A stretch of DNA of 64,000 nt. Source: Alphaproteobacteria bacterium (GTDB lineage Bacteria; Pseudomonadota; Alphaproteobacteria; CAAHEQ01; UBA3637). This document shows positions 15,549 through 48,155 of the stretch, one piece after another. Each line of letters starts with the position of its first letter. The first letter of the stretch is position 1. The notes under the pieces are model-generated. The model worked only from the letters and a program-made list of their open reading frames with translations. It did not search any database and was not told the origin of the DNA. Position numbers and translations under genes: made by a program. The stretch spans positions 109-64,108 of the forward strand of contig JAFTSJ010000027.1 of NCBI GenBank assembly GCA_017467335.1, written 5' to 3'.

Positions 15549-17321
15549 ATGAAAAAGATATTATTTGTTATTTGTTTGATAATTAGTTCATCTGTTTTTG
15601 CCCAAGAACAAATTATGTTTGCAAGTTGTCCGGATTCGTATGTTATGGACGAACAAGGAAAGTGTCGTCCTTGTTCTGAATTGATGAAATTTAAGACCTT
15701 GAAAAATGCTGATTGTTCTCAAAAGTGTCGAACAAAAGATGGGCAATATATCAGAAAAATCGGTCGTTGGGGGTGTGAATTGGTTGCATGTCCCAATGGT
15801 TCATTTGATAGTTTTGGCAACTGTCAGGTTGCAAAAACAACAACGTGTCCATCAGATCGCCCTTTACTGGATAAGGAAGGTAAATGTCATCCATGTGATG
15901 AATTATCTAGAATTAAATTAAAAAATAAGGATGATTGTGAAGCCCTTTGTCAGATTGACGGAAAGTCATTAAGACACGATACATTTTGGGGATGTTCTTT
16001 AAAGGAGTGTCCCCCAAACGCTCAAAAAGACAATTTTGAAAATTGCCATATATTCCCCAGCAAGTGTCCGGCAACACATCCGTTACGTGAAAAAAATTAT
16101 TGTTTTGATTGCGCATATGAAGGGGTTGTCGATTTAGATGAGAAAAATGTTCATTTGTGTTCACAAATGTGTCAAGACAGCCAAGGTAATCCGACACGAC
16201 AATTATTTCAAAATGCCGGTTGTGGGTTAATCACTTGTCCAACAGATAAACCGTTAAGAAGTAATGGAAGTTGTGTATCTTGTGATAGTGAAATGTCTTA
16301 TCCGACAAATAAATGTGATATATGTCCTCAAAGAACAATTGTTAATTTTGATAATCAGGAATGGTGTGCTTTAAAAACATGTCCGACAGACAAACCGTTA
16401 CGGGGATTGTATGGTGATTGTTATTCTTGTGATGATGACGAGGAAGTTTATGTTGAACAGCAAGTTTGTTTATCAAGTTGTCCTAATCGACAGGTTGAAA
16501 AAGTAGATTTGTCTGATATCGGTATATATGATAAAAGTGTTCAATCGATAGAAGCCTGTCTTTTGAAAAAATCAAAGAAAACAAGTAAAAATATTGATTT
16601 TTCATCGATGAGTAGAAACAGGACTGTTTTGAAACCTAAATTTGAAACAAGTCATTGTCCGGAAGATAAACCGTTAATGGATTATAATGGAGAATGTTAT
16701 ACATGCGATGATCCCGGATTGATTACTTTAGAATTAGAAGATTTATGTTCAAAATGTCCGAATAGAGTATATACGGATTTGTTCCATTATACAGAGGAAG
16801 GTGTTTCATATCGGTACATTTGTAAAATTGCCGAGGAAAAGGATATCCGACTTCGTCGTGAAGGAAACAGTTTTTACTATTATGACCAAAACAATCAATT
16901 AGTTGAAGAAAAACATCTGTTATCGGATAATCCTGAATCGGATACGTTATACAAATATTACAAAAACGGCGTTTTGTGGCGTGTTCAATATCAGCTGAAT
17001 TATCGAAGAAACGGTATTGAACAACGATATGATGCTAATGGAAAATTAGAATCAGAAATACCTTATAAAAATAATAAAATGGATGGGATTGTGAAAAACT
17101 TTTTTCCGGACGGAAAGATAAAATCTGAAATTCCGTATCAAAACAATAAAAAATCCGGTTTGGGGAAATGGTACCATCCTAACGGTGTGTTGTCATCAAC
17201 CGGATACTATAAAAATGATGTTTTCGAGGGGGAATATAAACTGTTTAATCAACAAGGAGAAGTGATTGAAGTTGGTGTTTATAAAAATGGAAAAATAATC
17301 AATCGCCAAAAATTAAAATAG
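15549..17321 (+). CDS. Secreted Cys-rich repeat protein with C-terminal MORN-variant (YwqK-like) repeats
   Basis: Sec signal peptide MKKILFVICLIISSSVFA|QE. Six modules of the type CP.D(K/R)PL....G.C..C(D/S) ... C..(.)C. The C-terminus carries repeats with a period of about 23 aa (Y.NGkl.sEIPYkNNK.dG). Confidence 0.8.
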   Translation: MKKILFVICLIISSSVFAQEQIMFASCPDSYVMDEQGKCRPCSELMKFKTLKNADCSQKCRTKDGQYIRKIGRWGCELVACPNGSFDSFGNCQVAKTTTCPSDRPLLDKEGKCHPCDELSRIKLKNKDDCEALCQIDGKSLRHDTFWGCSLKECPPNAQKDNFENCHIFPSKCPATHPLREKNYCFDCAYEGVVDLDEKNVHLCSQMCQDSQGNPTRQLFQNAGCGLITCPTDKPLRSNGSCVSCDSEMSYPTNKCDICPQRTIVNFDNQEWCALKTCPTDKPLRGLYGDCYSCDDDEEVYVEQQVCLSSCPNRQVEKVDLSDIGIYDKSVQSIEACLLKKSKKTSKNIDFSSMSRNRTVLKPKFETSHCPEDKPLMDYNGECYTCDDPGLITLELEDLCSKCPNRVYTDLFHYTEEGVSYRYICKIAEEKDIRLRREGNSFYYYDQNNQLVEEKHLLSDNPESDTLYKYYKNGVLWRVQYQLNYRRNGIEQRYDANGKLESEIPYKNNKMDGIVKNFFPDGKIKSEIPYQNNKKSGLGKWYHPNGVLSSTGYYKNDVFEGEYKLFNQQGEVIEVGVYKNGKIINRQKLK

Positions 17322-17392: not shown

Positions 17393-17475
17393 AGGGACAA
17401 AAAATAGAGTTGTTTTTAAGATAAAAATATGATAAATTATATAGGAATGTGTCATGGATGATTGAGGAGAAAAAT

Positions 17476-20400
17476 ATGCTTGTTACCGAAATGAAGCAGA
17501 GAATGCGTGCAGATTTTGAAGATAAATTCCGAATTTTAACCGGTACAGCGGAACAAGAACAACAATGGCAAGATTATTTTCAAGGAATTTGCCAACGTTT
17601 GTTAGGACCTCAAATTAATCTTGAAGAACATCCCATTCGCTTTTGCGTTTCTGATAGAAATAGTGTTAATGCGTTTTATCTGCCTCCACAAAAACCTCTT
17701 CCCAACAAATTTTATTTACCGGAAGAATTGGAAGAATTTGAACATCAAATTCCGTGTATTATTATTTATAAAGGTATGTTAGAGGCTGTTCAAAATGAAG
17801 ATCAACTGGCTTTCTTTTTAGGACATGAATTGGGACACTGGAAGACGGATGTATTTGATACAAAAGATACAGAAACACATGAAAATACAAAACTTGAAGA
17901 AGAAACTGCTGATATTCAGTCACTACAGATGATGGCTGATAGTGGTTACAATATCAATGAAGCATATAAAATCAGTGAAGGTTTCTTACATTCGGAAAAA
18001 TTGAATAATGCGGATGAAATAATTACCCGTTCATTGGATCATCATTTGAATAATGAAGACCGATTATTGGCAATCGGGACGACTATTCGACAGTTGGATG
18101 TTGAATATGCCGTTAAGGGGATTGATTTGGATTCTTATTCAACTCATGATATCCCGTTGGAATTTCGGGAGGAAATTAAGCAAAAACATCATGTTTCTCA
18201 AATTAAAAAAGATTTGCGTTCTTTGGGATATTATGATGTGTCTCTGGCTGAAAAACAAGATATTTTATTCAATTATTTAAATACGGTTTTAGCTAGTCGT
18301 GATATAGATGAAGGTTGGTATCTTTCTTTATTAAAAGACGTGTTACAAGAACATATTTTAGAACTGATGCATAATATTCCCAGAACAATTGTTCGTCAAA
18401 GCGATTATAATCTTTTGACACAACGTTTGTCAAAAGATGAATTGCAAAAATTAAAACCCTTATGGCAACAAATTGTTGGGAAACAATATGATTATGAATT
18501 TAATTCCTTTTACCGAAAAGATGTGTTGGATGCTTTTCCGTATAAAGTTGTTCCGGATGATGTGTACGAGCAAGAACACGCCGAGCAGGAAGAAAAACGC
18601 AAGCTGTTTTATCGACAAATTGATTCGGAACAAAATTTAAATGTATTATTTTGGAATCAACTAATGGATTGGGCTGCTCATGGTTATGCAAAAGATTTGT
18701 TTCTTTCATGTGCGGGATTACCTTTATCGGTTGTTCCTCAAATTGATTTAACAAAAACATCTTTTGGGCGTTGGACCAATTCATTTTTTAATGAAGATCA
18801 ACGTGTTTTTGTTGAGTTGATGTCTTACTCAATACACAGTATTCGTGAAAGTGATTTTTCATTGTTGCCGACAGAATTTTTACCTTTTGAGATTCAAAAT
18901 CCTTATCATTGCCTACAACATATTTTTTATCGATTTACCCCTAATTCATTTCCTGAATTAGATTTGGAAATGAGTGAAAATGATTGTCAAAAGTCTATGC
19001 CTCGGTGCTGTTTTGTATCTTACTTATCAGACTCATTCGGTGTCAGAGAAATTAACTATAGCGGACCATCTACAATTGTATCATATGTTCCTCATAATCG
19101 TGACCCGTTTAACAGAAAAAACGCCGAGTGGTGTTATGTTATTGAAAATGGTAAAATTGTTGATTCATTTCCTTATCAGAATAAAGAAAAAACTTGGGAA
19201 CGTGTTCGTAGCAGACACAAATATCAATTTCAAAAAGCAGTTGCCGATCATATCAAAGATGTGTATGGTATGCTTATGAAAATAAAAGAAAATTATCAAA
19301 CTCACGGATTAAACGCTCATCAATTAAGATTGGTAAAATCGTTCACATCTCCGGGGGCGTTTTTTAAAATTTCGTCATCAGCGGCTCAACGATATTTTGA
19401 TACATTAAACGATGAACAAAACGTATCTTATACAGGACGGGATCGAAAAAAACAAATAATGGCTTTTTTCCGTTCACAAGGTAATATCGGTTATCTTTTT
19501 GATTTTGAAACTTTCTACGATGAAGATTTGTTAAAAACATTTTTAACGGAAGAAGAAAGAGCCTTTTTCTTTGACGGATATAATGCTGATAATGACAACC
19601 TTGTTTTTCAAGCACTTCGAGCCGGTCATTTTGAAAATCCGGAAGAATTTAAGTGGTTGTTGGCGTGTGGAGATAATTTTTGTTGGTTTTCAGAATATGT
19701 TGAGATAGAGAACGGATATGACCACTTGCATACGAATCGGCAAGTTTTACAATATTTACATGATTATTTGAACCAGTTGTCAACGGATGAAATCCAGAAA
19801 CAGACACAATTACAACAAAGAGTTTTTGATGTTGAATGGAGAAATTTACATTATTTTGTGGAAAAACAATTAGAGGAAAATCCGCAACTGACAGGAGCTG
19901 ATGTTGATTTTTCGTCTTATTCTTATTTGATATTGGATGAAATGGCTGAAAAATTGGGTGTTCCCATTCATTTTTCGGATTACAGTATTGCCGAACATGG
20001 CATTCATAAAGGAAAAGTTGATTTTAGATGGAATAATCGTATTGCTGAAATTTTGAAAAAAAATAAAATTGCTGATAAGGGTATGAATATAAATCGTTAT
20101 AATATACAGTCGTTTATGCTTATCATGTATATTTTAACTGATGAAACACATACATTGCCGTTAGGTGAAATTTTTATTGATCAAGATATCATCTATTCAT
20201 TACTTCCTTATCCGTGTTTGGAAGAAAAATTATTACCATTTTTGTATCGCCGCAAAAATTACCCGACTGATTCGGTTGAAGCGTTGAAAACTTTTAGTAA
20301 TATTATTCGACCGTTAAGAAAAAGTACGGCTCCTATATTTAATGTCGCATTGGATATTGTGCTTGATGAAAAGGATATTCAAAAATCACTGGAAGCGGCT

Positions 20401-33441: not shown

Positions 33442-34374
33442 ATGACACAACAAAATTTTCCACGTGTAACAATTGTAACGGTTGTTCTTAATTTAATTCA
33501 AAATAATCGAGAAGATATGTTTCGCAGATGTGTTCAAAGTATTCGTCAACAAACGTATCCTCATATTGAACATATTGTTATTGATGGAGCCTCTACGGAC
33601 GGAACGGTTGAATTACTTCAATCAATGGGGTTAACTTTTTTTTCAGAGAAAGATACCGGCATCTATGATGCGATGAATAAAGGGATTTTAAAAGCAACAG
33701 GTCAATATATTGCTTTTATGAATTCTGATGATTACTATGCTTCGCCGACAGCCGTTGCTTCCATGGTACAAAAAATGGTTGAAACGAATGCAGACGGAGC
33801 CTATGGTCGAGCCTACATTGTTGGTCGTCCCGGAAAAAAAGATTTATTGAAATCATATTGGATAGGACAGGCTTTTTATCGTATGCCGGTTTGTCATCAA
33901 GCCTTTTTTTGTACGGTTGCTTCGCTAAAAGAACAAGGATTATTTGATACATCATTTCGAATAGCCGGCGATTATAATTCTATTTATAAAATGGTTATGA
34001 ACGGTAAGTTAATTGTTCCCGTGCAGGAAAAAATTGCCTGTTTTGTTTTAGGTGGTATTTCAACTCAACTTATTCAAAAATCCAAGGATGAAAGTATTCG
34101 AGTTATTGAAAATAATTTAAATATACCTTTATCGGTGGCTCAAACAATTGCTCAAAACAAATATGTGCCGTTTCGGTTATATCGACAGTTAAGAAAACGG
34201 CTTCATCCCAAAATGGTATCAGCATTTGACTATGTCTTTTTAAAACAACTTTTGTATCGATTTATTCATTCTGTGGCAACCATTCATTTAAGAAAAGGAT
34301 CACGATACATTCAATTGTTTGGAATACGTATTATCGGTCAAAATAACCCAACAACTCGGATTGAAAAGGAATAG
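33442..34374 (+). CDS. Family 2 glycosyltransferase
   Basis: VTIVTVVLN....SIRQQTYPHIEHIVIDGASTDGT and NSDD (DxD-like). Confidence 0.85.
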   Translation: MTQQNFPRVTIVTVVLNLIQNNREDMFRRCVQSIRQQTYPHIEHIVIDGASTDGTVELLQSMGLTFFSEKDTGIYDAMNKGILKATGQYIAFMNSDDYYASPTAVASMVQKMVETNADGAYGRAYIVGRPGKKDLLKSYWIGQAFYRMPVCHQAFFCTVASLKEQGLFDTSFRIAGDYNSIYKMVMNGKLIVPVQEKIACFVLGGISTQLIQKSKDESIRVIENNLNIPLSVAQTIAQNKYVPFRLYRQLRKRLHPKMVSAFDYVFLKQLLYRFIHSVATIHLRKGSRYIQLFGIRIIGQNNPTTRIEKE

Positions 34375-34375
34375 T

Positions 34376-35380
34376 ATGTCTGATTGGTTGGAAGATAATT
34401 TGGCAGAAGAAACAGAACGGAATGATTTTGCCGGTCCAATTATGACGCCGAAAGTTGTATCGGAATGGGCTAATCAACGGTTAGATAAATATTTAGTCAA
34501 TGTGATGAAGGGATATTCCCGTAATCAGATTATTCGTTTTATTGAAACAGATTGTGTGAAACATCACTCAACAGACACTTTTATTAACGAACCTGATTAT
34601 CGTACGAAAACAGATGATGTTTATGTTATTACTTTACCCCAAGCCCAACCGGCTGAGCCGAAAGCAGAAAAAATTTCATTAGATATTTTATATGAAGACA
34701 ATGATGTTATCGTTGTGAATAAACCGGCCGGTATGGTTGTTCATCCGGGGGCGGGTAATTATACGGGAACGCTTGTTAATGCTTTATTATATCATGCGGC
34801 GGATTCGTTATCCGGTATAGGAGGCGTTAAACGTCCGGGAATTGTTCATCGTATTGATAAAGATACCAGTGGAATATTGGTTGTTGCTAAAAATGATTAT
34901 GCTCATATCCGATTATCAGAACAATTTTCAGCTCATACCATTGAACGGGTTTACCAAGCTTTTGTATGGGGGTTTGTCCAACAAAAAACGGGTACTATAT
35001 CTGGCAATATCGGTCGTAGTCCGACAAATCGCCAAAAGATGGCTATTGTTAAAAATGCCGGTAAACCGGCAACAACGCATTATGAACGATTGGCTTCCTA
35101 TCAACAGTTAGCTTCCCATGTTCAATGTGTATTGGAAACGGGTCGAACACATCAAATTCGTGTTCATATGGGTTCAATCGGTCATTCGTTAATCGGCGAT
35201 TCGGTTTATGGTGTTGTTCCCAAACAGGCTCCTCATTTTTTACGGTTTTTCCCACGTCAGGCATTGCATGCCGGTTCGTTAGCCTTTATTCATCCGAAAA
35301 CGGGAAAACGATTGTATTTTGAAACACCTTTACCATCAGATTTGATTGAGTTAAAATCATTTTTAGAACAAATGTCATAA
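34376..35380 (+). CDS. rluD: 23S rRNA pseudouridine synthase, RluD family
   Basis: S4-like N-terminus, catalytic motif HRIDKDTSGILVVAKN, and GRTHQIRVH. Start moved to ATG 34376. Confidence 0.9.
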   Translation: MSDWLEDNLAEETERNDFAGPIMTPKVVSEWANQRLDKYLVNVMKGYSRNQIIRFIETDCVKHHSTDTFINEPDYRTKTDDVYVITLPQAQPAEPKAEKISLDILYEDNDVIVVNKPAGMVVHPGAGNYTGTLVNALLYHAADSLSGIGGVKRPGIVHRIDKDTSGILVVAKNDYAHIRLSEQFSAHTIERVYQAFVWGFVQQKTGTISGNIGRSPTNRQKMAIVKNAGKPATTHYERLASYQQLASHVQCVLETGRTHQIRVHMGSIGHSLIGDSVYGVVPKQAPHFLRFFPRQALHAGSLAFIHPKTGKRLYFETPLPSDLIELKSFLEQMS

Positions 35381-35384
35381 AAAA

Positions 35385-35414
35385 TGCGTGGTGCCCAAGG
35401 AAAAACACCACGCA
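35385..35414. terminator. Bidirectional terminator between convergent genes
   Basis: 9-bp stem tgcgtggtg / caccacgca with a 12-nt loop. Confidence 0.65.
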
Positions 35415-35440
35415 CGCCTCTATATTTTTAAGAGAATGTC

Positions 35441-36031
35441 TTAAAAATAGTATCGAGCAGTTAATTTGACATCGTTTGAACGAACGTCTTGTTTTGTTTT
35501 TCCGGTATAACCTTCACGTGTTTTAACACGGGCTTGACCTAAATCCGTATAACGGTAACCTAAGTCCAAAGACAGACAGTTATTAACCATATAGTCTAAA
35601 CCGACACCGGCAGTCCAAGCAAAGTTTGTTTTTGTTGCACCTTTGGCATCCGGCATATCATCCGTTACGTTCCATGCCATACCCAAACCACCCATACCAT
35701 AGACGCTTAAGTTGTGGTTTAACGGCATTGTTGCATAGATATTTGCTAAAACCGGAACAGACCACATATCTGTTTTTCTTTTACCGACAGTTGTTTTCAT
35801 ATCAACATCGCTCCAACCACGATAACCGACTGTTAAATCGGAACGAAGGTATTCGTTAACATGGTAACCCATACCGATACCTAAAATACCGGCATCGCCT
35901 GTATCTTTGATACCGAATGAATAACCGGCTTCACCCAGTACGTAAGGTTTGCTGAAATCAACGGCATGAGCATTGCTTGTTGCCATCAATAAACCGGCAA
36001 TTGCCAAACCTGATAATAAATACTTCTTCAT
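35441..36031 (-). CDS. Outer-membrane beta-barrel protein (Omp25/OmpA-like porin family)
   Basis: Signal peptide ...TSNAHA|VD, alternating beta-strand pattern, C-terminal ...LTARYYF. Confidence 0.8.
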   Translation of the reverse strand: MKKYLLSGLAIAGLLMATSNAHAVDFSKPYVLGEAGYSFGIKDTGDAGILGIGMGYHVNEYLRSDLTVGYRGWSDVDMKTTVGKRKTDMWSVPVLANIYATMPLNHNLSVYGMGGLGMAWNVTDDMPDAKGATKTNFAWTAGVGLDYMVNNCLSLDLGYRYTDLGQARVKTREGYTGKTKQDVRSNDVKLTARYYF

Positions 36032-36262
36032 TTTATATTCTCCTTTCTTAAAAATATTACGAAGCAATTTAAAACTAGGGTCAGAAAGTTATCTTGTCTA
36101 GCGAAAATAATCAAAATAGATAAAATAAATAGGACTGTATGTAAAAATCATAAACCTATATGTTTCAAATGGTTATTTTAATTTATAAAAAACTTGTGTC
36201 TGACTAAAAAATGTGTTAAACTGTAAAAAAACAGGAAAGGCGATTCGGTCAGAGGAGTTTAT

Positions 36263-36718
36263 ATGCGTATCAATGATAAAATCATATCAAACATGATTGG
36301 CAAAGATGAAAAATTTATTTGGGAAGTAACCGGTTCGATTGCTGATGTGTTATATAATCCTCTTTTTTGGATTTTAACGGTTCTAACATGTGGTATTTTT
36401 ATTATTGTGTTGTACTATAATAGGATTTATCACAGTTACGTTTTAACAACACAACGGTTGATTATTATTTCCGGTATTTGGACAAAAGACGTTGATGAAA
36501 TTGAATTGTTTCGTATTGTTGACAGTTCGTCATCACAATCAATGATTGATTTATGGTCGGACTTGGGGGATATTTTCATCAATTCAACAGATAAAACGGG
36601 TTATTTGAAAATGCACAAAATTCGCAATCCGCACGCTGTTCGTGATTCGTTGCGTTATCAATATATGGCTTCTCGTCAAAAAAAAGGGACGGTTGTCTTG
36701 GAAAACATTTCTCGTTAA
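36263..36718 (+). CDS. Bacterial PH-domain (bPH_2/YdbS-like) membrane protein
   Basis: TM hairpin followed by YVLTTQRLIIISGIWTKDVDEIELFRI. Confidence 0.7.
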   Translation: MRINDKIISNMIGKDEKFIWEVTGSIADVLYNPLFWILTVLTCGIFIIVLYYNRIYHSYVLTTQRLIIISGIWTKDVDEIELFRIVDSSSSQSMIDLWSDLGDIFINSTDKTGYLKMHKIRNPHAVRDSLRYQYMASRQKKGTVVLENISR

Positions 36719-36740
36719 TCTGTTCAGGAAATTATTGTAT

Positions 36741-36764
36741 AGGCGAGCCGGTATTGGCTCGCCT
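36741..36764 (+). terminator. Rho-independent terminator
   Basis: GC-rich 9-bp stem aggcgagcc / ggctcgcct with a 6-nt loop. Confidence 0.7.
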
Positions 36765-37004
36765 TCTTGACGAATCGATGTGTATTTTGTGTATCAATTG
36801 ATATAAGTACGATATAAAACCGTTTTATCATATTTTCCTGCCAAAAAAATGCTTCCGCTGGTTACCGCTTTTTACCGTTTTTTACCTAACATTTCCGATA
36901 AATACCTGAATTTTCTTATTTTAATTGTTTATATGAGAGGTAAAATTTCTTATACTGTCAAAAGGGAATAATCCCGATAATCATATTTTTTAAAGGAGAA
37001 AAAA

Positions 37005-37775
37005 ATGCCATTTGACAGTGAAGGAAATTTTACACGGATTCACAGTTGGGAAGATGACCGTGTAAACGGAATTGAAATTGTAACGGAAAGACATGATGAA
37101 GAAGACGATAATTTTGCCGCCGGATTTAATGAAACATTTTTGCGAGATGGTCGTGTTGCCATGACCGGTGTTATAGATATGGGTGGTTATAAAATTCAAA
37201 ATTGTGGAAAAGGTGTTATTGGTACAGATTTAATTACCAAAGACCAGTTAACGGATAATGTGATAACAACAACCAATAATTTGATGTTAGTTGGTGATAT
37301 AAAGGCATCTGTTATTCCATATAACCATTCATGTTGGTTATTGTGTAACGGGCAAGCTGTTTCAAGAACGGAATACAGTGAATTATTTTCTTTGATTGGA
37401 ACAACATTTGGAGCCGGTGATGGTGTTACAACATTTAATATTCCGAATTATCAAGGAAAATTTTTGCGAGGATTGGGAGGGGATAGTGCAGGCAGTATTG
37501 CAGAAACCCAACAAGAAGGATTACCGAACATTTACGGACGAGCCGGTATCGGTATTCAAGAAAATTTGGCACCTTTTGATATTTCGGCAGCAAACGGTTC
37601 ATTTTACAATGCCGGTGTTACAGGTGTTAATAAAGCCCATTATCCGGATTGGCAGGTTCAATCATATTATCTTGATTTTGATGCATCTCGTGTCAGTCAT
37701 ATTTACGGGGCCAGCACGCATGTTACACCGGTCAATCAAGCTGTTTACTATTTTATAAAAGCCAAAAATTTATAG
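37005..37775 (+). CDS. Phage tail-collar-domain fibre protein
   Basis: WLLCNGQAVSRTEYSELFSLIGTTFGAGDGVTTFNIPNYQGKFLRG is the canonical Phage_Tail_Collar motif. The N-terminus (F.R...W..D...G..I....HD.EDDNFA.G....L.RDG...MTG..DMGG.KI.N) is typical of tail-fibre N-termini. Confidence 0.85.
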   Translation: MPFDSEGNFTRIHSWEDDRVNGIEIVTERHDEEDDNFAAGFNETFLRDGRVAMTGVIDMGGYKIQNCGKGVIGTDLITKDQLTDNVITTTNNLMLVGDIKASVIPYNHSCWLLCNGQAVSRTEYSELFSLIGTTFGAGDGVTTFNIPNYQGKFLRGLGGDSAGSIAETQQEGLPNIYGRAGIGIQENLAPFDISAANGSFYNAGVTGVNKAHYPDWQVQSYYLDFDASRVSHIYGASTHVTPVNQAVYYFIKAKNL

Positions 37776-37783
37776 GAGGAAAT

Positions 37784-38137
37784 ATGACAAGTCGTATTAC
37801 ATCTACATCAATTACTGTAACACAGGGTGATTCTTTACCGATTTTATTAACTTTTAACCAAGATATTACCGGTGCTGTTATTACAATGCAAGTTCGCAAT
37901 GATGACGATAAGCTGATATTAAGTAAAACAGTGACGGAACATTTAAATCCACTCAAAGGAGAAACACTTTTAAATTTAACGCCTAAAGAAACATCTGTTC
38001 CTGTTGGTATATATCGAACGGATATGGAAATTACGTTTTCAGATGGAGCTAAATATACCTTTTATCCGCCTCAAATCGGTAAAACGGCCTGTTTTCATGT
38101 GACAACGCAAATTACACGAGAGGATGGTTTAATATGA
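37784..38137 (+). CDS. Small all-beta (Ig-like) phage tail accessory protein
   Basis: 117-aa ORF, 8 nt after the collar gene and overlapping the next gene by 4 nt. The beta-strand-rich sequence resembles BppU-N/Ig-like fibre adaptor domains (weak). Confidence 0.5.
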   Translation: MTSRITSTSITVTQGDSLPILLTFNQDITGAVITMQVRNDDDKLILSKTVTEHLNPLKGETLLNLTPKETSVPVGIYRTDMEITFSDGAKYTFYPPQIGKTACFHVTTQITREDGLI

Positions 38138-39597
38138 TAAGATTAGCAAATGAAACAGATATTGTCCCCCAACATGAACTTGTCGTTGATATAAAACCAC
38201 AAAATGAAGTTCATGTAACGGTTGGGGCACTTCATTGTGTTTTACAAACCGATGCGGTTTGGGTTCGTAATGGTGAAAAAGAAGTTCAATATTATGTTGA
38301 TACGGTTGTTAAACCGGAATTGAATCAAATTATTACGCAAGGAAAAGATGATTTTCAGCATATTATTTCGGAAGAAACAGATGAATTAAATCAATTGCTT
38401 GTGGACAATAAAGAATCGTATCAATCTTTTACTGATGAACAAAAAGATTTTTTTAATGCAAATGTACAAGAACAAACATCACAATTTAATCAACATGTGA
38501 TTTCTCAACAAAATATGTTAGATAATCATATTCTGGAAATTGAAGATACCTTTAATCAAAAACAATCTGATATAGAAGTATTGGCAGAACAAGTTGCTCA
38601 AAATACATCTGAAACGGCACAAAATACCGTTAAGACACAACAATATGTTGAACAATCTTCTCAATCGGCTCAAACAGCCCAAACAGCTGTTCAATCTGTT
38701 CAAGCAATACAAACCGATATTGGTCAAATCAAGAACGAAACAATATCTGTTTATGAACAGACCGTTGAACAGATTGATTTAGCCGCTGATTACACATTGA
38801 AAGCTCAACAATCAGCCCAAACGGCAACAGACAAATTAAACGAGGTTCAAACCTATGTTCAAGAAGCATCTCAATCAGCTCAAACAGCATTAACGGCTCA
38901 ACAATCAGCTCAAGACAGTTTACAACAAATGCAAATGTTGATGGATGATACGGTTACGGTAAGTGGCAATCAAATAATTACAGGTCGTAAAACATTTATA
39001 ACACCTCTTTATCGACAATCTGAAGAATTTGATTCAACTCAAAACAGCGTAGCGAACTACACTGCTGAGCCAATAGCCCAAGCAACGGACAAATCCGGTC
39101 GTTGTTTTATGAATTTGCAATATGGGAAAGAAACAAATGGAACATTGTTTGGACGATTGTCATTAAGTCGTTTAGTTAACGGTGCCACTCATGAACATTC
39201 TTTAAATATGGGGATTTCCAATGAGGGAATTGGTTTTATTCAGTGTCTATCACCTCAACCGGAAAGTAATTCAGCCGATATTGCCACAACACAATGGAGC
39301 AGGAATACCATTCGGGATATTACATTTCCTGATTGGGCAACATGTGTTGAAATTTCAGGAACGGGACAAAAATATGCCCCATATGACGGTGTTTTAATTG
39401 TCACACCGGAAGATCAAGGAGAATCTTGTTTTACAATGATAATCGGTGTTCATGAATATAATTTAGCTCAAGAATATTTTGGTGCAGACTATGGCCATAC
39501 GGGGTATGGTTTTTTCCCAATGAGAGCAAATTTACCTTATTCAATTACGCATATGTTCGGTTGTTATTGTCGGTTTTTCCGTTATATAGGAGGATAA
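38134..39597 (+). CDS. Phage tail-fibre protein (Q/A/S-rich coiled-coil shaft plus C-terminal globular domain)
   Basis: Repeats SQSAQTAQTAVQSVQ and SQSAQTALTAQQSAQ, followed by the fibre motif VSGNQIITGRKTF and about 210 aa of C-terminal domain. Confidence 0.75.
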   Translation: MIRLANETDIVPQHELVVDIKPQNEVHVTVGALHCVLQTDAVWVRNGEKEVQYYVDTVVKPELNQIITQGKDDFQHIISEETDELNQLLVDNKESYQSFTDEQKDFFNANVQEQTSQFNQHVISQQNMLDNHILEIEDTFNQKQSDIEVLAEQVAQNTSETAQNTVKTQQYVEQSSQSAQTAQTAVQSVQAIQTDIGQIKNETISVYEQTVEQIDLAADYTLKAQQSAQTATDKLNEVQTYVQEASQSAQTALTAQQSAQDSLQQMQMLMDDTVTVSGNQIITGRKTFITPLYRQSEEFDSTQNSVANYTAEPIAQATDKSGRCFMNLQYGKETNGTLFGRLSLSRLVNGATHEHSLNMGISNEGIGFIQCLSPQPESNSADIATTQWSRNTIRDITFPDWATCVEISGTGQKYAPYDGVLIVTPEDQGESCFTMIIGVHEYNLAQEYFGADYGHTGYGFFPMRANLPYSITHMFGCYCRFFRYIGG

Positions 39598-39981
39598 ATG
39601 AAAAAAATTATTGTACATTATGATTTGGAAACAAAAACGTGTGATGTTGCAGACGTAACACCGCAAAATACATTGTTGTTTCCCGATAAACCAATTGTTG
39701 AATGTGGTCAAGATTGGCGAGGTTGGTGGTATAAAGAATCTGAAATACCATCAAAGCCTGTAACTGTTCTGGAAGAAGAAGTACGAAAAAAAAGAGATAA
39801 TTATTTAAAAAAATATGTCGATTGTATTCAATTGGTATTACGATGGGAAACATTAACATCATCGGAACGCGAACAATATCGATTATATCGACAATATCTT
39901 TTGGATATTCCGCAACAAGCACAATTTCCGCAAATAACCGTTTTAACGTTTGACGAATGGTGTCAACATCCGTCAATTTGA
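39598..39981 (+). CDS. Tail-fibre assembly chaperone-like protein
   Basis: 127 aa, directly abutting the fibre gene. The C-terminal pattern RWETLTSSEREQYRLYRQYLLDIPQQAQFPQ resembles Tfa/DUF4376-type chaperones. Confidence 0.55.
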   Translation: MKKIIVHYDLETKTCDVADVTPQNTLLFPDKPIVECGQDWRGWWYKESEIPSKPVTVLEEEVRKKRDNYLKKYVDCIQLVLRWETLTSSEREQYRLYRQYLLDIPQQAQFPQITVLTFDEWCQHPSI

Positions 39982-40128
39982 TACATTTTCCAAAAAAGAA
40001 GTTGTTTTTTGAAAAATTTTCCCTTGGTAAAAAGAATTGTGAAAAAACAAAAAAAATAAAAAATTATTAACTAATTTTTCATACTTTTTTGTGAGAATAA
40101 AAGCACTATTTGTCAAGAGGAAAAAATC

Positions 40129-42006
40129 GTGTTTAACATTGGAAAGATAAACCATAAATTTTTGATGATTGGTTTAGGACTTGTATGTCTGATAGGGGTT
40201 GGTTATTTCAGCCCCTCGTTGCGATTAGATACGATAACGCCCAATCATCATGAAAATTTTATTAAGCAAATTTCCAAACAGCATTTTTCGGATGCGGTTG
40301 TTTCCACTTTTCCGGATTATGATTATCATTTGTCTGAAATGGCTCAACGGGCATTAAGTGTCTATACCAATTCAGAAAATATCCATGTTATCGTTCGAAC
40401 GGATTTGTCTGTCAGTCATGAAGATACGGTTCGCCGAGATGTTTTCCCTGAAACATCGGTGATTCGCCGTCAATTGACGACAACACAAGAAAATAATGTT
40501 GTGATTAAAGATGCGACATACGATTATTCTACCGTTACAACAAAAACGCAAGCCTATTATTATCATATTAAAAAGATGAATGTATTGATTTTTTTGACAC
40601 AACATCAGCAATCATCGCTTGTCTTTGATAAATCTAAAATTCAAGAAATTATACAAACATCAATCGGATATGATATAAATCGAGGCGATTTGTTGCGGTT
40701 GATAGAAATACCGCATTCAATCAGTCATATGACCTTTACAAATAATCGTAACATACAAATTCGACAAATTTTTGCCATTATTTTTATGTGTTTGTTGGGT
40801 ATTCTTATTGTTAGTGGTGTTTTGATACCGCTATGTATTTCATTGGGACGTAAGCAACCGGTTATGTGTCAAAAAGCATTTGCACAAAAAGATGGTTATC
40901 ATCATCAAATCGTTGGACATATGGAAGAAAATTTAATTTTAAAAGCCCAAGATTTGTGCATGCGTATGCCCGAAGCAGCCGTTAATATCCTACGTAATTG
41001 GTTGTCATGGGAAAATCGTAAAAATAAAGAAAACGGCTCTTTTTCACCGGCTCAAAAGGCTGCCATTGTTTTACTGTGTTTGGGAGATAATTGCATTCGT
41101 CATTTGTTTAAAAAAATGACGGACACTGAAATTTTTTCTTTATCTCGTTTAATGGCTTCATTGGGTCAAGTTAAAGCCATAGAAATTCAACCGATTCTTT
41201 TATCTTTTTGTCATTCTATGAATGAACCGCAGGATATTCGAGAAACGAAACCGTTGATTGAAACAGTGATAAGAAATACGTTGCCGATTGATAAAGCGGC
41301 TGTTTTGTTAAAAGAATTGAAAATTCAAACGACACAAAAAACAATTTGGGATAAAGTTAATCAAGTACCGACTTCTCATTTAAGTTCTTTTTTATTGCAG
41401 GAATATCCGCAAACATCAGCTGTTATTTTGTATCACTTGACAACGGAAAAAGCCGCAGCGGTTTTGGCGGAAATGGATGCAAAAACAGGGGCTCAAATTT
41501 TATTAAGGTTAAGTTCTTTGCAATATATGGATAAAAATAATATTCATATGATTGAATTGAATTTAGAAAAACAAATAGATTCATTGATGAAGCGGGTCAA
41601 TGGTGTCGGGGAGAAAAAAGCCTCGGCCATATTAAGTTTGCTTGACAAAAAAACACAAGGGCGTTATATATCGTCATTAGAACGATTATCTCCGCAAACA
41701 GTTGGTGTACTTGAAAAAAATATTTTGAATTTTGATGATTTGGCTCATTGGCATTCTAAGGATTTAATTATCTTATTAAAGCACATTGACAATCAAACAT
41801 TGGTTTTGGCTTTATCGAATGCTCGTAATGCGACAAAAGAAGCGTTTTCTCGGGTTATTTCACCTCAAAAATGGAGTAAAATGCTAAATCAAATGCGACA
41901 AATGCCAATCGGTAAAATAGAAGATATTGATATGTCACAACGAGCCGTTATTCGTATTGCTCAACAATTGATAGAAAGTAAAAAATGTAAAGGAACAATA
42001 ATATGA
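40129..42006 (+). CDS. Natural FliF(shortened)-FliG fusion protein
   Basis: GTG start behind an AGAGGA RBS. Order of parts: TM1; a periplasmic part of about 185 aa ending KIQEIIQTSIGYDINRGDLLRLIEIP (the FliF motif that precedes TM2); TM2; the FliF tail motif EAAVNILRNWLSW; then a complete FliG (AAIVLLCLGDNCIRHLFKKMTDTEI..., EYPQ, C-terminal domain). Confidence 0.8.
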   Translation: MFNIGKINHKFLMIGLGLVCLIGVGYFSPSLRLDTITPNHHENFIKQISKQHFSDAVVSTFPDYDYHLSEMAQRALSVYTNSENIHVIVRTDLSVSHEDTVRRDVFPETSVIRRQLTTTQENNVVIKDATYDYSTVTTKTQAYYYHIKKMNVLIFLTQHQQSSLVFDKSKIQEIIQTSIGYDINRGDLLRLIEIPHSISHMTFTNNRNIQIRQIFAIIFMCLLGILIVSGVLIPLCISLGRKQPVMCQKAFAQKDGYHHQIVGHMEENLILKAQDLCMRMPEAAVNILRNWLSWENRKNKENGSFSPAQKAAIVLLCLGDNCIRHLFKKMTDTEIFSLSRLMASLGQVKAIEIQPILLSFCHSMNEPQDIRETKPLIETVIRNTLPIDKAAVLLKELKIQTTQKTIWDKVNQVPTSHLSSFLLQEYPQTSAVILYHLTTEKAAAVLAEMDAKTGAQILLRLSSLQYMDKNNIHMIELNLEKQIDSLMKRVNGVGEKKASAILSLLDKKTQGRYISSLERLSPQTVGVLEKNILNFDDLAHWHSKDLIILLKHIDNQTLVLALSNARNATKEAFSRVISPQKWSKMLNQMRQMPIGKIEDIDMSQRAVIRIAQQLIESKKCKGTII

Positions 42007-44658: not shown

Positions 44659-47391
44659 ATGGAAATTTTAAACGCTTTTTTAAACGGATATTTTAAACAA
44701 AAAAATGCTGAAACCGGACGCAGTATGGTGGAAATGCTGGGCGTTTTAGCAGTTATCGGTGTTCTTTCAATCGGCGGGATTTATGGTTACACCTTTGCGA
44801 TGGATAAATATCGAGCAAACGATATTGTGTATGAAGTCAATCTGCGTGCCAATGATGTTTGGCATAAATATCAAGAACAACCCCTGCCTGATCCCAGTGA
44901 AGACGGCACGGATTTTGACGAATTTCCGGATACAACGGGAACGGGTTATCCGATTTACATGACATCACACCCCGATGTTGCTTTTAAAACATATGTTGAA
45001 GGTGTTTCTTCCCGTGTATGTAAAAATGTTGTGAACATGAACTTAAACGGTGTTATTCAAGGCATACAATTTGTGCAGGTTGCCCAAGGGGACGGGGATT
45101 TAGTCAAATATACAGGCAGTGCGTCGATTTGTGGGGAAGAAGAAACAGATAATACACTTGTTTTTACATCATTTTTGGATTCTGAAAGTAATGAAGGCGA
45201 AGGTCAAAGTGGTGACCCATGCGTTGAAGAAGAAGATTGTAATATGTTGTGTGCTCCCGTTACATGTGAAGACGATATGACATGTCATAACAGTTGTACA
45301 GGAACCTCAACACCATTTTGTTATGATAATGACAGTGGCGGTATTTGTGTTGAATGTTTAAGTAATAAAGATTGTCCAAATGAACAAATTTGTGATTTAA
45401 CGAAACATGAATGTGTGGCATTGCCTGAATCATGTGGCGAGGGCGACCGCTATGGCAAAGAATATCGGGCAGCAAATGGATCGTGTGTCAGTTGTGATTA
45501 TATGAGCGAAATTATCATCATGAACTCGGATGATAATGACGGTATTTTTGAAAAACAAGTTGGTAGTGTGTCTATTAAAGATACACATAGTGGAATAGAA
45601 ATGTGTCAAGCGTGTGCTTCGATTCAACACCGGATTGAAGAAGCAGGGACGGGCGATAACATTAAAACCTATTGTGCCACCGGTTGTATTAAAGGCAATA
45701 GTTTTTTAAGTAAAACAAGTGGTTGTATTCCATGTAATTCTTTAACGGAGATAGCCATTCCGAATGAGGATCAAGCACGATTACAATGTACGGCTTGCAC
45801 CAATCGGGTATGGTTTCGGGAAAATACGAGTCCTAGTGCGGATTATATCTGTGTTTTACGTACTTGTCCTGATGGTTATTTCAAAAATCATACCGGAAAA
45901 TGCCGTAAATGTGTCATAAACGGTTGGCCAAGCGATCAGGATTTTTACAATGCCATTATATGGTTTTCTTATTTAGGTACGTCTGCCGGTAATTTGGCAG
46001 AAGAATGGTCTGAAGGGTGTTTGCAATGTGCTAATGCAACTGATCCAAAACTGCGTAAAAAATATCAAGTCGTAAAACAAGGTAGTTCTTATGTTTGTAC
46101 AGATGTATGTGGTCCTAACCAATTCCAAGATTCAGCAGGAAATTGTTACGATTGTAATACGGAGGAAGCCCCCGGATTGGGAACATTTTCTGGGTGGGTA
46201 AGTGGTATGAAATCATGGTTAGTCAATTTATGCACATCCTGTACAACGGCAAAACGAGAAGTGCAAGATGGTAAATGTGTTAAAGTAGGTGATAGTGATT
46301 GTTCTTCAGAACCCGTGCCATCATTTATGGGAACAGATTATACATGTTATCCATGCACACACAATGCCCGTGTTCAGGTATTTACAGATGCCAACAAAGA
46401 CGGTGTTGATGATTACGGTGGGTGTACTTCCGTTTGTGGTGAGGATAAGCGATTTATGCTAAATGGCTATTGTTATAAAAAATGTGATGCAAATCAGGTT
46501 ATGAGTGTGTGGGGAGCCTGTCAAGACTGTTCTAAAATAGGATTGTCCTATAAGATTGGTGAAGGAAGTAATCCTCCTATTGTAGATGAATTATGCCGAA
46601 CGGCTTGTGGTAAAGGCACTCATGATGTTTATTCATGTGATTATATCTATTGTGCCCCAACAGATTGTGGTGAGGGGCGATTACATACATTGTTAAATGA
46701 TTATAATGGACCATGCGACAAGTGTCCGACAGCCAGTTCAAAATCAATTAACGTCAGATCAGATAATGCAACATTTAAAGCCGAATGTGAAGCCTGTGGA
46801 AATCATGCGTTTATCAATCAATATTGTGTTTATATGAATCCCAGTCAATCAGGCATTTGTAACAGTGATAGTCCAGATACAACCAAATGGTCGAATTATA
46901 CAGCCGGTATCGGCGTCCTTTATCGGGATAATACAGGTGTTTGTCGTCGTTGTGATGATCAAAGTAATTCATATGCGTCAACACAAACAGAATGCGAAAG
47001 TTGTATTGTAAATGGTGTTCAAATTCGTCGTTGGGTTGGAGGCAGTTGTGTCTATGGCGGTTGCAGTGAAGGTGATACATTCAGAACAGCAAATGGGTGT
47101 ACCAGTTGTACCACAAATGCCATCAAAGTTGCCACAACGGGACAAGATGCCGACTTGCTTTGTAATGCGTGCCATCGGCGAATTATGACAGATGTGAATG
47201 AAATAAAATATTGTGTTCAAAAATGCGATTCGGATGAATGGCAAGATATTAACGGCGACTGTTGGGGCGCAGAAACGGATGTCGGTAGTAATGAAATCGG
47301 TACGGATGAATTATCGGCTCAATTATGCCGAAATGTATCACGAACACCCAATAAAGATACCGCAACAGGAAAAGTGTATTGTCAACAATAA
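44659..47391 (+). CDS. Giant prepilin-leader protein with furin/VSP-like CxxC cysteine-rich repeats
   Basis: N-terminus MEILNAFLNGYFKQKNAETG|RSMVEMLGVLAVIGVLSIGGIYGY, with G at -1, E at +5 and a hydrophobic helix. The remainder contains 17 CxxC motifs in alternating C(P/G).G.(Y/F)....G.C..C and C..C units. Confidence 0.85.
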   Translation: MEILNAFLNGYFKQKNAETGRSMVEMLGVLAVIGVLSIGGIYGYTFAMDKYRANDIVYEVNLRANDVWHKYQEQPLPDPSEDGTDFDEFPDTTGTGYPIYMTSHPDVAFKTYVEGVSSRVCKNVVNMNLNGVIQGIQFVQVAQGDGDLVKYTGSASICGEEETDNTLVFTSFLDSESNEGEGQSGDPCVEEEDCNMLCAPVTCEDDMTCHNSCTGTSTPFCYDNDSGGICVECLSNKDCPNEQICDLTKHECVALPESCGEGDRYGKEYRAANGSCVSCDYMSEIIIMNSDDNDGIFEKQVGSVSIKDTHSGIEMCQACASIQHRIEEAGTGDNIKTYCATGCIKGNSFLSKTSGCIPCNSLTEIAIPNEDQARLQCTACTNRVWFRENTSPSADYICVLRTCPDGYFKNHTGKCRKCVINGWPSDQDFYNAIIWFSYLGTSAGNLAEEWSEGCLQCANATDPKLRKKYQVVKQGSSYVCTDVCGPNQFQDSAGNCYDCNTEEAPGLGTFSGWVSGMKSWLVNLCTSCTTAKREVQDGKCVKVGDSDCSSEPVPSFMGTDYTCYPCTHNARVQVFTDANKDGVDDYGGCTSVCGEDKRFMLNGYCYKKCDANQVMSVWGACQDCSKIGLSYKIGEGSNPPIVDELCRTACGKGTHDVYSCDYIYCAPTDCGEGRLHTLLNDYNGPCDKCPTASSKSINVRSDNATFKAECEACGNHAFINQYCVYMNPSQSGICNSDSPDTTKWSNYTAGIGVLYRDNTGVCRRCDDQSNSYASTQTECESCIVNGVQIRRWVGGSCVYGGCSEGDTFRTANGCTSCTTNAIKVATTGQDADLLCNACHRRIMTDVNEIKYCVQKCDSDEWQDINGDCWGAETDVGSNEIGTDELSAQLCRNVSRTPNKDTATGKVYCQQ

Positions 47392-47552: not shown

Positions 47553-48155
47553 ATGTTTAAATGGATGTTTCCCCATCTTTTACCGATAAAACAAACGGAT
47601 ACAAAGCGAATTGAACGATTGTTTTCATCAGAAGAATTGGCTCATGAATATATTACAGACAATCGTATAGAAGATAAAGATTTTAATATTCAAGATTCGA
47701 ATGGTGATACGTTGCTTCATCGATATCCGACTTTGATTTTTGATTTGATACCTCGAGGAGCTAATCCGAATATTTGTAATCGGAAAGGTGATTCTCCCTT
47801 GATTATTGCTATGCGAGCCGGTGTATTTTCGATGTTTTTAGTTAATACCACGCATGCGGATTTGTTAAATAAGGTTTATTCTGACGGTCAAACAATTTTA
47901 ACAACTGCCTTAAAGATGGATAGTGTTAATTTGCGTATTATAGCCAAATTATTGGAAAAGGGAGCCAATCCCCTTCAACCCAATCGATTGGGGCAAACAC
48001 CATTTGATGTGAGTGCCATGTATCATCCGCATAATCAGGAATTACACCGATTATTACGCCGATATGTTCCAACACCTCAACAGATTAAACGGTCCCATCA
48101 TTTATTGAAACAGGTCGTTGCCGGTAAGGTTGAAAGCAATATACATGACAAATGA
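47553..48155 (+). CDS. Ankyrin-repeat protein
   Basis: DSNGDTLLH, NRKGDSPLIIAMRAG and DGQTILTTAL...LLEKGANP..PNRLGQTPFD are ANK repeats. No signal peptide. Confidence 0.85.
   Translation: MFKWMFPHLLPIKQTDTKRIERLFSSEELAHEYITDNRIEDKDFNIQDSNGDTLLHRYPTLIFDLIPRGANPNICNRKGDSPLIIAMRAGVFSMFLVNTTHADLLNKVYSDGQTILTTALKMDSVNLRIIAKLLEKGANPLQPNRLGQTPFDVSAMYHPHNQELHRLLRRYVPTPQQIKRSHHLLKQVVAGKVESNIHDK

Follow-up and report, generated by a model that had tools for sequence, protein, structure and literature searches.

A natural single-chain fusion of a shortened FliF to a complete FliG, encoded with flhF and flhG in gut Alphaproteobacteria

The FliG-interaction domain (FID) of FlhF binds the middle and C-terminal domains of FliG (FliG-MC), FlhF-bound FliG engages FliF, and FlhG modulates the process (PMC11236974). 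In Vibrio, formation of the membrane-supramembrane (MS) ring needs FlhF or FliG, and a FliF-FliG fusion made in the laboratory assembles efficiently into rings (PMC10941966). In Campylobacter jejuni, which is without Min, FlhG acts together with FliF, FliM, and FliN to block polar division (PMC3228812). Otherwise, FlhF and FlhG are known solely for placing flagella (PMC12826062). Here we describe fliFG, a gene that joins fliF and fliG in one reading frame and is followed directly by flhF and flhG. It lies in a 64,000-nucleotide stretch of contig JAFTSJ010000027.1 (assembly GCA_017467335.1, Alphaproteobacteria bacterium), which we analyzed as a whole and refer to as the window. An initial reading of this DNA, the original prediction, took the gene for a natural FliF-FliG fusion with a periplasmic region cut by about half and neutralized torque-helix charges, perhaps repurposed as a polar export or anchoring platform. 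With incomplete coverage, a literature search for a natural short FliF-FliG fusion, or for FlhF and FlhG kept with one, returned engineered fusions only, and a similarly incomplete search on flagellar relics with FlhF and on genomes of RF32-type gut Alphaproteobacteria returned nothing on the fusion protein. The fusion is an arrangement of known components that is new, not a new kind of system.

The fusion protein is a shortened FliF joined to a complete three-domain FliG (Table 1). Its open reading frame (ORF) begins with GTG and continues for 625 codons without a break in frame. All the elements named in the original prediction occur, and in the order given: the first transmembrane (TM) helix, the RGD-containing end of the periplasmic region, the second TM helix, MPEAAVNILRNWL, the FliG N-terminus, EYPQ, and ISPQKWSKMLNQM. 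Pfam assigns YscJ_FliF_C (aa 127-195), FliG_N, FliG_M, and FliG_C to the protein, all above gathering cut-offs, and the full-length homologues and the family alignment agree with these domains in identifying a natural single-chain FliF-FliG fusion. Over its whole length, the FliG part can be aligned with FliG of Aquifex aeolicus (3hjl), Thermotoga maritima, and Salmonella, and with 8umd. Its score of 132 bits is below the NCBIfam equivalog cut-off of 226.7 (TIGR00207), the YscJ_FliF_C (PF08345) match is partial and covers only the last half of the profile, and no NCBIfam FliF model matches the fusion. With hidden Markov models built from the fusion family, the window showed no fliF-like or fliG-like ORF besides the fusion itself. 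Conservation of two short motifs is confined to the gut clade, and neither has an equivalent known from FliF or FliG. One is QIxGxxEENL in the linker (aa 260-269, 40906-40935), with Q260 invariant and I261, G263, E266, E267, and L269 nearly so; the other is the C-terminal KKCKG, in which K619 is invariant and C620, K621, and G622 are nearly invariant.

For comparison with conventional proteins we used 80 loci returned by a metagenome scan with an alignment (A5), treating them as controls and not as relatives. In all 80, fliF and fliG are separate genes (FliF 520-620 aa, FliG 331-360 aa), and the genes downstream, read in three of them, are fliH-fliI-fliJ-fliK-...-fliM, fliH-fliI, and flhA.

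We asked which parts of FliF remain. In MS-ring structures, the ring-building motifs RBM1 and RBM2 form the inner ring around the export gate, and in real flagella RBM3 and the β-collar surround the rod. An AlphaFold2 (AF2) run on the family alignment gave a predicted local distance difference test (pLDDT) value of 70 for the complete fusion, and of 73 when its periplasmic part was modelled by itself. The model runs from TM1 through two helices, a 35-residue β-hairpin, a helix, and a strand to TM2, and then through a disordered linker and two further helices into FliG. When the periplasmic model was searched with Foldseek, the top 17 matches were all FliF RBM3/β-collar chains (E ~1e-10). On RBM3-only chains such as 6sd1_A and 8zdt_A, which have 150-156 residues, the alignment extends over about 150; the next match after FliF was SpoIIIAG (E 1e-4). 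The Pfam scan found no match to PF01514 (YscJ_FliF, RBM1/RBM2) in the fusion, and the same profile does match two full-length natural fusions described below, P0073 and P0164. Because Foldseek matches RBM3 and the collar only and PF01514 is absent, RBM1 and RBM2 have been deleted and the S-ring module kept, and the periplasmic part is thus predicted to be RBM3 and β-collar only. Only ~35-50 residues precede RBM3 in the fusion, and in canonical control FliFs (n = 68, at least 500 aa) RBM3 is generally matched at about aa 230-450. The AF2 model and the Foldseek matches thereby bear out a periplasmic region of about half the canonical length and indicate which motifs make up the difference. Towards its end, R185-G186-D187 is invariant in the gut-clade alignment.

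The cytoplasmic end of FliF is also represented. The C-terminal fragment of FliF, searched on its own against PDB sequences, gave no match, and we used a motif count instead. The FliG-binding motif seen in the fusion as PEAAVNILRNWL occurs in the last 90 aa of 50 of the 68 canonical FliFs, versus 8 of 1249 background ORFs. In the fusion, the FliG N-terminus begins ~13 residues after this motif. Both halves of the FliF_C-FliG_N interface are present in one chain, as in the 'full-length' laboratory fusion.

Several lines of sequence data indicate that the fusion ORF is a genuine gene under selection. A protein search recovered the single-chain architecture in 25 protein clusters (611-679 aa, 27-100% identity), and a genome scan recovered 8 loci with the fusion, all in metagenome-assembled genomes (MAGs) labelled Alphaproteobacteria. 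These MAGs are independent assemblies from human, water-buffalo, rabbit, and other gut samples. Relative to the 82%-identical orthologue in L001, the ratio of nonsynonymous to synonymous substitution (dN/dS) is 0.10 for the whole gene, and by region 0.16 (periplasmic), 0.03 (FliG_N), 0.07 (FliG_M), and 0.03 (FliG_C), compared with 0.07 for flhF, 0.04 for flhG, and 0.10 for the housekeeping gene rluD, all approximate ratios given a dS of ~1.1-1.3, near saturation. As the same architecture recurs in 25 clusters and 8 loci with a dN/dS of about 0.10, the fusion is not an artefact; the frame is continuous, and neither a frameshift nor a missed stop has to be invoked. A profile search of 1.84 billion representatives yielded ~30 clusters (50% identity) whose members, 520-648 aa long, have two TM helices and FliG, and all of these except one or two carry a P-x-x-W helix, to which we return below. 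Few members of the distant groups B and C were recovered by word-indexed protein searches. In public records the family goes unnamed: MBQ9090112.1, from a 68.8-kb contig and in the same 90% cluster as the window protein, is annotated 'hypothetical protein [Alphaproteobacteria bacterium]'.

The P-x-x-W helix occupies the position of the torque helix, which we compared between 67 canonical FliGs from the control loci and 46 fusions. HMMER pairs T. maritima LALKGA...MSKRAAALLKDELEYMGPVR with LALSNA...ISPQKWSKMLNQMRQMPIGK of the window protein. The stator-contact residues, which we take to be K264, R281, D288, D289, and R297 in E. coli numbering, correspond to S563, Q580, N587, Q588, and K596. Conservation at these positions is nearly complete in canonical FliG, with K or R at K264 in 67 of 67, R at R281 in 66, D or E at D288 in 66 and at D289 in 67, and R or K at R297 in 67. 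Among the 46 fusions, K is found at the first position in 5, R at the second in 3, E at the third in 4 (with K in 23), D or E at the fourth in 12, and R or K at the fifth in 22. A tryptophan two residues past the R281 position (W582) has the opposite distribution, being present in 46/46 fusions and 0/67 canonical proteins, and P579 is invariant in the 21-sequence gut-clade alignment. At the acidic pair, even close relatives differ from one another (N/Q, H/Q, and K/K, the last in most relatives), making a conserved electrostatic contact there unlikely. The neutralization of torque-helix charges proposed in the original prediction holds: the charges are gone in the window protein (R281 to Q, D288/D289 to N/Q, K264 to S), but the change is a family-wide remodelling, not a simple neutralization. 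The former torque helix carries a newly fixed Pro/Trp surface, and the invariance of this surface suggests a new partner.

The FliM-binding EHPQR-type motif of the middle domain has fared differently. It is kept in the window protein (E425-Y426-P427-Q428 with R460) and in the window clade, and it is lost in ~17 of the 46 fusions, the more distant ones. The EYPQ spelling, which had been singled out as noteworthy, is commonplace, as tyrosine occupies the histidine position in 10 of the 67 canonical control FliGs.

The two genes that follow fliFG, which the original prediction had overlooked, are central to its interpretation. The first encodes a protein with an SRP54 domain (PF00448, 1e-15) whose best NCBIfam model is FlhF (TIGR03499; 110 bits, below the cut-off of 174) and whose best PDB match is Bacillus subtilis FlhF (2px0). 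Residues 2-47 match the crystal structure of the FlhF FID (9en1, E 8e-4). This N-terminal domain and the G1 and G4 motifs are kept across 11 orthologues. The G3 motif reads DTPS(F) in place of DTAGR, with DTP(S/A) in 11/11 orthologues, and G2 reads DTHK in place of DTYR, with D(T/R)xK in all 11. Because G2 and G3 are altered, normal GTP hydrolysis is doubtful, and the window FlhF may bind GTP yet hydrolyze it poorly. The second gene encodes a MinD-type ATPase that matches FleN (136 bits, 1e-38) and FlhG (116 bits, 2e-32) in the PDB ahead of MinD (67 bits, 2e-17), with the deviant Walker A motif SGKGGVGKT intact. It ends 8 residues past the aligned core, where FleN and FlhG run ~30 residues further, and all of its orthologues stop at the same point. 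The C-terminal tail of FlhG is a membrane-targeting helix. Judged from length and alignment only, the window FlhG appears to be without this amphipathic helix.

The order fliFG-flhF-flhG, with 4-nt overlaps, is kept among housekeeping genes in all gut-clade loci, and fliFG lies divergent beside rluD wherever the context is readable. This constant neighborhood argues for vertical inheritance within one lineage. The module itself differs between relatives. In P0031 and P0025 (L102, L103, L019), it is fliFG-fliN-flhF-flhG, apart from other flagellar genes; in the window clade (L001-L008, L010-L012), it is fliFG-flhF-flhG; in the P0038 type (L013), a TM hairpin with ~20 loop residues is fused to FliG and followed by flhF-flhG; in group B (L015, L018), fliFG stands alone before dnaE or other housekeeping genes; and in group C (L101), fliFG precedes a ParA-like fragment. 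Synteny, FlhF, and FlhG are all kept in P0038, P0039, P0178, and P0179, which have ~20 residues between the TM helices. Since these orthologues have no periplasmic domain, the shared function would be cytoplasmic, at least in those organisms.

Other flagellar genes are not part of this neighborhood. We found no flagellar, motor, or chemotaxis genes besides fliFG-flhF-flhG in the 64-kb window, whose remaining content is housekeeping genes (lpx genes, bamA, mutS, proS, a mur ligase, acrB, and others), repeat proteins, and a phage-tail-fibre-like cassette, and none within 10 kb in ~14 annotated contexts other than the flhF and flhG partners and the fliN of some relatives. A tblastn search for FliH, FliI, FliJ, FliK, FliM, FlhA, and FliN across ~335 kb (the window plus L001-L019) returned only fliN in L019 and an F1 ATPase β subunit, the latter accounting for a FliI-like match in L007. 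An Oligoflexus locus (L009) was set aside as a relative, as it holds a FliG-like ORF only and no fusion.

Two further features of the locus vary between relatives. Taking L010, L007, L012, and L013, where rluD is divergent beside fliFG, as the reference orientation, the block from rluD to a tail-assembly chaperone (window 34319-39981 versus L010:2100-9393) is inverted in the window and in L001, and a small TM gene between rluD and fliFG is gone from the window. Directly upstream of fliFG or beside rluD, L004-L007 and L010-L019 encode a conserved 84-131-aa protein, in all groups (for example L011:2762-3115 and L018:9624-9917). Its features are a single TM helix at the N-terminus, a basic stretch, and a C-G-E-x-x-C-L-x-T (CxxxC) motif. 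It has no Pfam or NCBIfam match and is absent from the window, L001, L002, and L003. This protein may be a further component of the module, comparable to FipA in size and position.

On balance, we consider it probable that the fusion is a pared-down flagellar assembly-initiation module that persists as a non-rotating membrane scaffold positioned by FlhF and FlhG. By synteny, its origin would be the residue of a polar-flagellum assembly-initiation module, fliFG-fliN-flhF-flhG, inherited vertically beside rluD in uncultured gut Alphaproteobacteria. RBM3 and the collar would still oligomerize into an inner-membrane ring, giving a fixed 1:1 array of FliG on its cytoplasmic face. FlhF would dock on FliG and FlhG would act on FlhF, and together they would place the ring, probably at a pole, and limit the number of rings. 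With the stator-contact residues and RBM1/RBM2 gone, the assembly would presumably neither rotate nor house a type III export gate, and the Pro/Trp surface of the former torque helix would engage a new partner. Loss of torque generation is consistent with the sequence data, as the helix is remodelled, RBM1 and RBM2 are missing, some orthologues have no periplasmic domain, and no flagellar genes adjoin. At its most speculative, the output could be spatial information passed on through FlhG, for example keeping division away from the poles as in C. jejuni. A fuller version, in which the flagellum was lost and its first assembly intermediate, the self-assembling FliF-FliG ring placed by FlhF and FlhG, was kept as a flagellum-independent, Min-like organizer of polarity or division site whose Pro/Trp face recruits a non-stator partner, is one that we offer as a tentative possibility.

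The scaffold reading has to be weighed against one in which motility persists, with the fusion as the working MS ring and rotor of a streamlined flagellum whose other genes lie elsewhere, its 1:1 stoichiometry fixed by fusion and its helix co-evolved with an altered stator. Engineered FliF-FliG fusions in Salmonella and Vibrio are functional or form rings (PMC10941966), FlhF and FlhG have been tied to flagellar placement alone (PMC12826062), and a full-length natural fusion, P0073, sits within a flagellar operon. Several observations that lend weight to a rotor also count against a scaffold. RBM3 and the collar have been retained, and in the window clade they are under purifying selection. The EHPQR motif is preserved as E-Y-P-Q...R, and in some relatives fliN is part of the module, so that some C-ring-like (cytoplasmic-ring-like) partner may persist. 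P0058 (648 aa, L100:1702-3648), a short FliF with a full FliG and a canonical charged torque helix, is encoded beside fliN, so that losing RBM1/RBM2 does not by itself imply that motor function is gone. The rest of the genome may hold a complete set of flagellar genes or another, normal fliF/fliG pair; the loci that we examined share synteny and so are not independent samples; and ring formation, polar location, and a division role of the fusion are all points that we infer. We nonetheless regard a working rotor as unlikely, for it would have to function without RBM1 and RBM2, in syntenic orthologues without any periplasmic domain, with acidic-pair positions that drift between close relatives, with a degenerate G3 motif in FlhF, and with no flagellar gene within 10 kb in the ~14 annotated contexts.

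An export function is less probable still. Insect endosymbionts keep flagellar basal bodies without filaments, and the fusion could by analogy serve as the membrane base of a device of flagellar origin for protein export or secretion, like the basal bodies that Buchnera has kept; the retained β-collar ring would suit such a device. The deleted parts of FliF, RBM1 and RBM2, are those that contact the export gate, some orthologues dispense with the periplasmic domain, and flhA, flhB, fliPQR, fliH, and fliI are absent from the operon and from the 335 kb searched, which together make this explanation improbable. The repurposing envisaged in the original prediction consequently holds up in one of its forms: an anchoring or positioning platform fits the tight flhF-flhG operon, and an export platform fits poorly, with RBM1/RBM2 lost and no export-gate gene nearby. 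The fusion might, finally, be nothing more than a decaying, functionless leftover, or two genes joined by a sequencing or assembly error. The sub-threshold FliG score, the want of a FliF model match, and the 'hypothetical protein' label could all be read in this way. Against it stand the continuous frame, seen at identities down to 27% in assemblies obtained independently from human, buffalo, rabbit, and other sources, the low dN/dS (0.10 overall and 0.03-0.07 in the FliG domains), and the gain of new invariant residues, P579 and W582. We give this explanation almost no credence, and so far as sequence data permit, it is refuted.

If the scaffold reading is true, an S-ring module, a FliG-binding tail, FliG, FlhF, and FlhG would constitute a minimal stand-alone core of the basal body, and the family would serve as nature's own test of how flagellar assembly begins, with the FlhF-FliG-FliF recruitment cascade that was first described in 2024. 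The series from fliFG-fliN-flhF-flhG through fliFG-flhF-flhG to a bare TM hairpin on FliG would then show a rotary machine being dismantled and possibly re-used, and the module would offer a testable case in which FlhF and FlhG serve something other than flagellum placement, such as cell polarity or division. Recognizing the family, publicly a 'hypothetical protein', improves the annotation of uncultured gut Alphaproteobacteria. The small fusion protein may also form rings readily, and could suit structural work on the MS-ring/FliG junction.

Table 1. Coordinates of fliFG, its parts, and its operon partners in the window.
Feature	Position	Strand	Description and basis
Shine-Dalgarno-like AGAGGA	40116..40121	+	7 nt 5' of the GTG start; direct sequence reading
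fliF-fliG fusion gene (fliFG)	40129..42006	+	625 aa plus stop; ORF list, Pfam, homologues, dN/dS
TM1, aa 11-27	40159..40209	+	Hydrophobic FLMIGLGLVCLIGVGYF; AF2 helix 4-27; G23 and F27 invariant
Periplasmic domain, aa 28-212 (185 residues)	40210..40764	+	Core aa 62-194 predicted as RBM3 + β-collar (S-ring module)
TM2, aa 213-238	40765..40842	+	Hydrophobic; AF2 helix 202-239; Kyte-Doolittle scans of homologues
Cytoplasmic linker, aa 239-265	40843..40923	+	Predicted disordered; pLDDT <50 over aa 240-267
FliF C-terminal FliG-binding helices, aa 266-294	40924..41010	+	Contain PEAAVNILRNWL at aa 281-292; two predicted helices just before FliG_N
FliG N-terminal domain, aa 306-406	41044..41346	+	PF14842, E 7e-20, 72 bits
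FliG middle domain, aa 416-487	41374..41589	+	PF14841, E 2e-17, 64 bits; EYPQ aa 425-428, R460
FliG C-terminal domain, aa 516-617	41674..41979	+	PF01706, E 4e-14, 53 bits; end-to-end alignment with known FliG
Remodelled 'torque helix', aa 577-592, ISPQKWSKMLNQMRQM	41857..41904	+	HMMER alignment to T. maritima FliG; residue comparison
C-terminal KKCKG motif, aa 618-622	41980..41994	+	Conserved in gut clade; without counterpart in canonical FliG
flhF-like SRP-type (signal recognition particle-type) GTPase, 322 aa	42003..42971	+	Start overlaps fliFG stop by 4 nt
flhG/fleN-like MinD-type ATPase, 262 aa	42968..43756	+	Start overlaps flhF stop by 4 nt

Elsewhere in the window, a phage-tail-fibre-like cassette (37005-39981, +) stands without other phage genes around it. 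It encodes a tail-collar protein (PF07484), a 117-aa ORF, a 487-aa Q/S/A-rich fibre-like protein, and a tail-fibre assembly chaperone (PF16778), and it is kept in L001 (64-93% identity), with a more distant version in L010. Downstream of the module, a 910-aa protein (44659-47391, +) has no Pfam domain and a weak Cys-rich-repeat match. Paralogues or homologues of it occur near the module in L002-L005, L007, L008, and L011, one with EGF/teneurin-type matches, and it is probably a member of a large surface-protein family. The window also encodes a MORN-repeat protein (15549-17321), a 2065-aa ORF (17449-23646), and an ankyrin-repeat protein (47553-48155); eukaryote-like repeat proteins of this kind hint at a host- or protist-associated lifestyle for this low-GC (~36%) alphaproteobacterium. 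Promoter-like sites were not above the shuffled background (31 versus 25.1, standard deviation 4.5) and terminator-like sites were (8 versus 3.3, standard deviation 1.8); we drew no operon boundary from either scan.

Compared with known systems, the window protein shares with canonical FliF and FliG the two TM helices, RBM3/β-collar, the PExAVxIxRxW motif, the N-terminal, middle, and C-terminal domains of FliG, and an EHPQR-like motif. Canonical FliF and FliG differ in being encoded by separate genes, in conserving the stator-contact residues, and in having fli/flh genes following in three loci. The engineered Vibrio alginolyticus fusion (PDB 8z4d/8z4g; PMC10941966) likewise runs from FliF straight into FliG and keeps the binding motif and FliG_N, and aa 264-617 of the window protein can be aligned to its 8z4d chain. 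The laboratory Salmonella and Vibrio fusions, engineered or spontaneous, contain a whole FliF (~945 aa in total) with RBM1/RBM2 and a charged torque helix and operate inside a complete flagellum, whereas the window protein has 625 aa, no RBM1/RBM2, and a remodelled torque helix.

Other natural fusions exist. P0073 (869 aa) is, like the window gene, a single ORF joining FliF and FliG in a public assembly, but PF01514 (RBM1/RBM2) and a canonical torque helix are both still present in it. Its gene, flanked by fliE and fliH, belongs to a flgN-flgK-flgL-fliW-csrA-fliS-flgB-flgC-fliE cluster and is an independent fusion event within a real flagellar operon. P0164 (787 aa, L104:6147-8756) also has RBM1/RBM2 and a canonical torque helix; most of its FliG_N is gone, in which it resembles a Salmonella deletion fusion. 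Four shorter proteins, P0076, P0085, P0142, and P0154 (454-507 aa), combine a short FliF (RBM3 only) with FliG_M and FliG_C and have no clear FliG_N. Together with P0058, these four may be intermediates between a working rotor and the window form.

SpoIIIAG resembles the periplasmic part in its RBM-type domain with an inserted β-hairpin and forms a large ring with a β-barrel collar, but it is a much weaker match than FliF RBM3, comes without FliG, and belongs to another system and taxon. In C. jejuni, the MinD-like FlhG has a topological marker in the flagellar MS or C ring, a role that might survive the loss of motility. That organism differs in having a complete flagellum and in requiring FliM and FliN, not FliG, and a division link for the window system would be by analogy only. 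A parallel in gene content is the FlhF-FlhG placement switch of Shewanella, Vibrio, and Pseudomonas. The window FlhF is without the G3 glycine and arginine, its FlhG is without the C-terminal tail, and there are no flagellar genes in sight for the pair to regulate. Both systems combine an FID-bearing FlhF with a FleN/FlhG-type ATPase, and the chain known from polar-flagellum placement, FlhF-FliG-FliF, consists of exactly the proteins retained in the window module.

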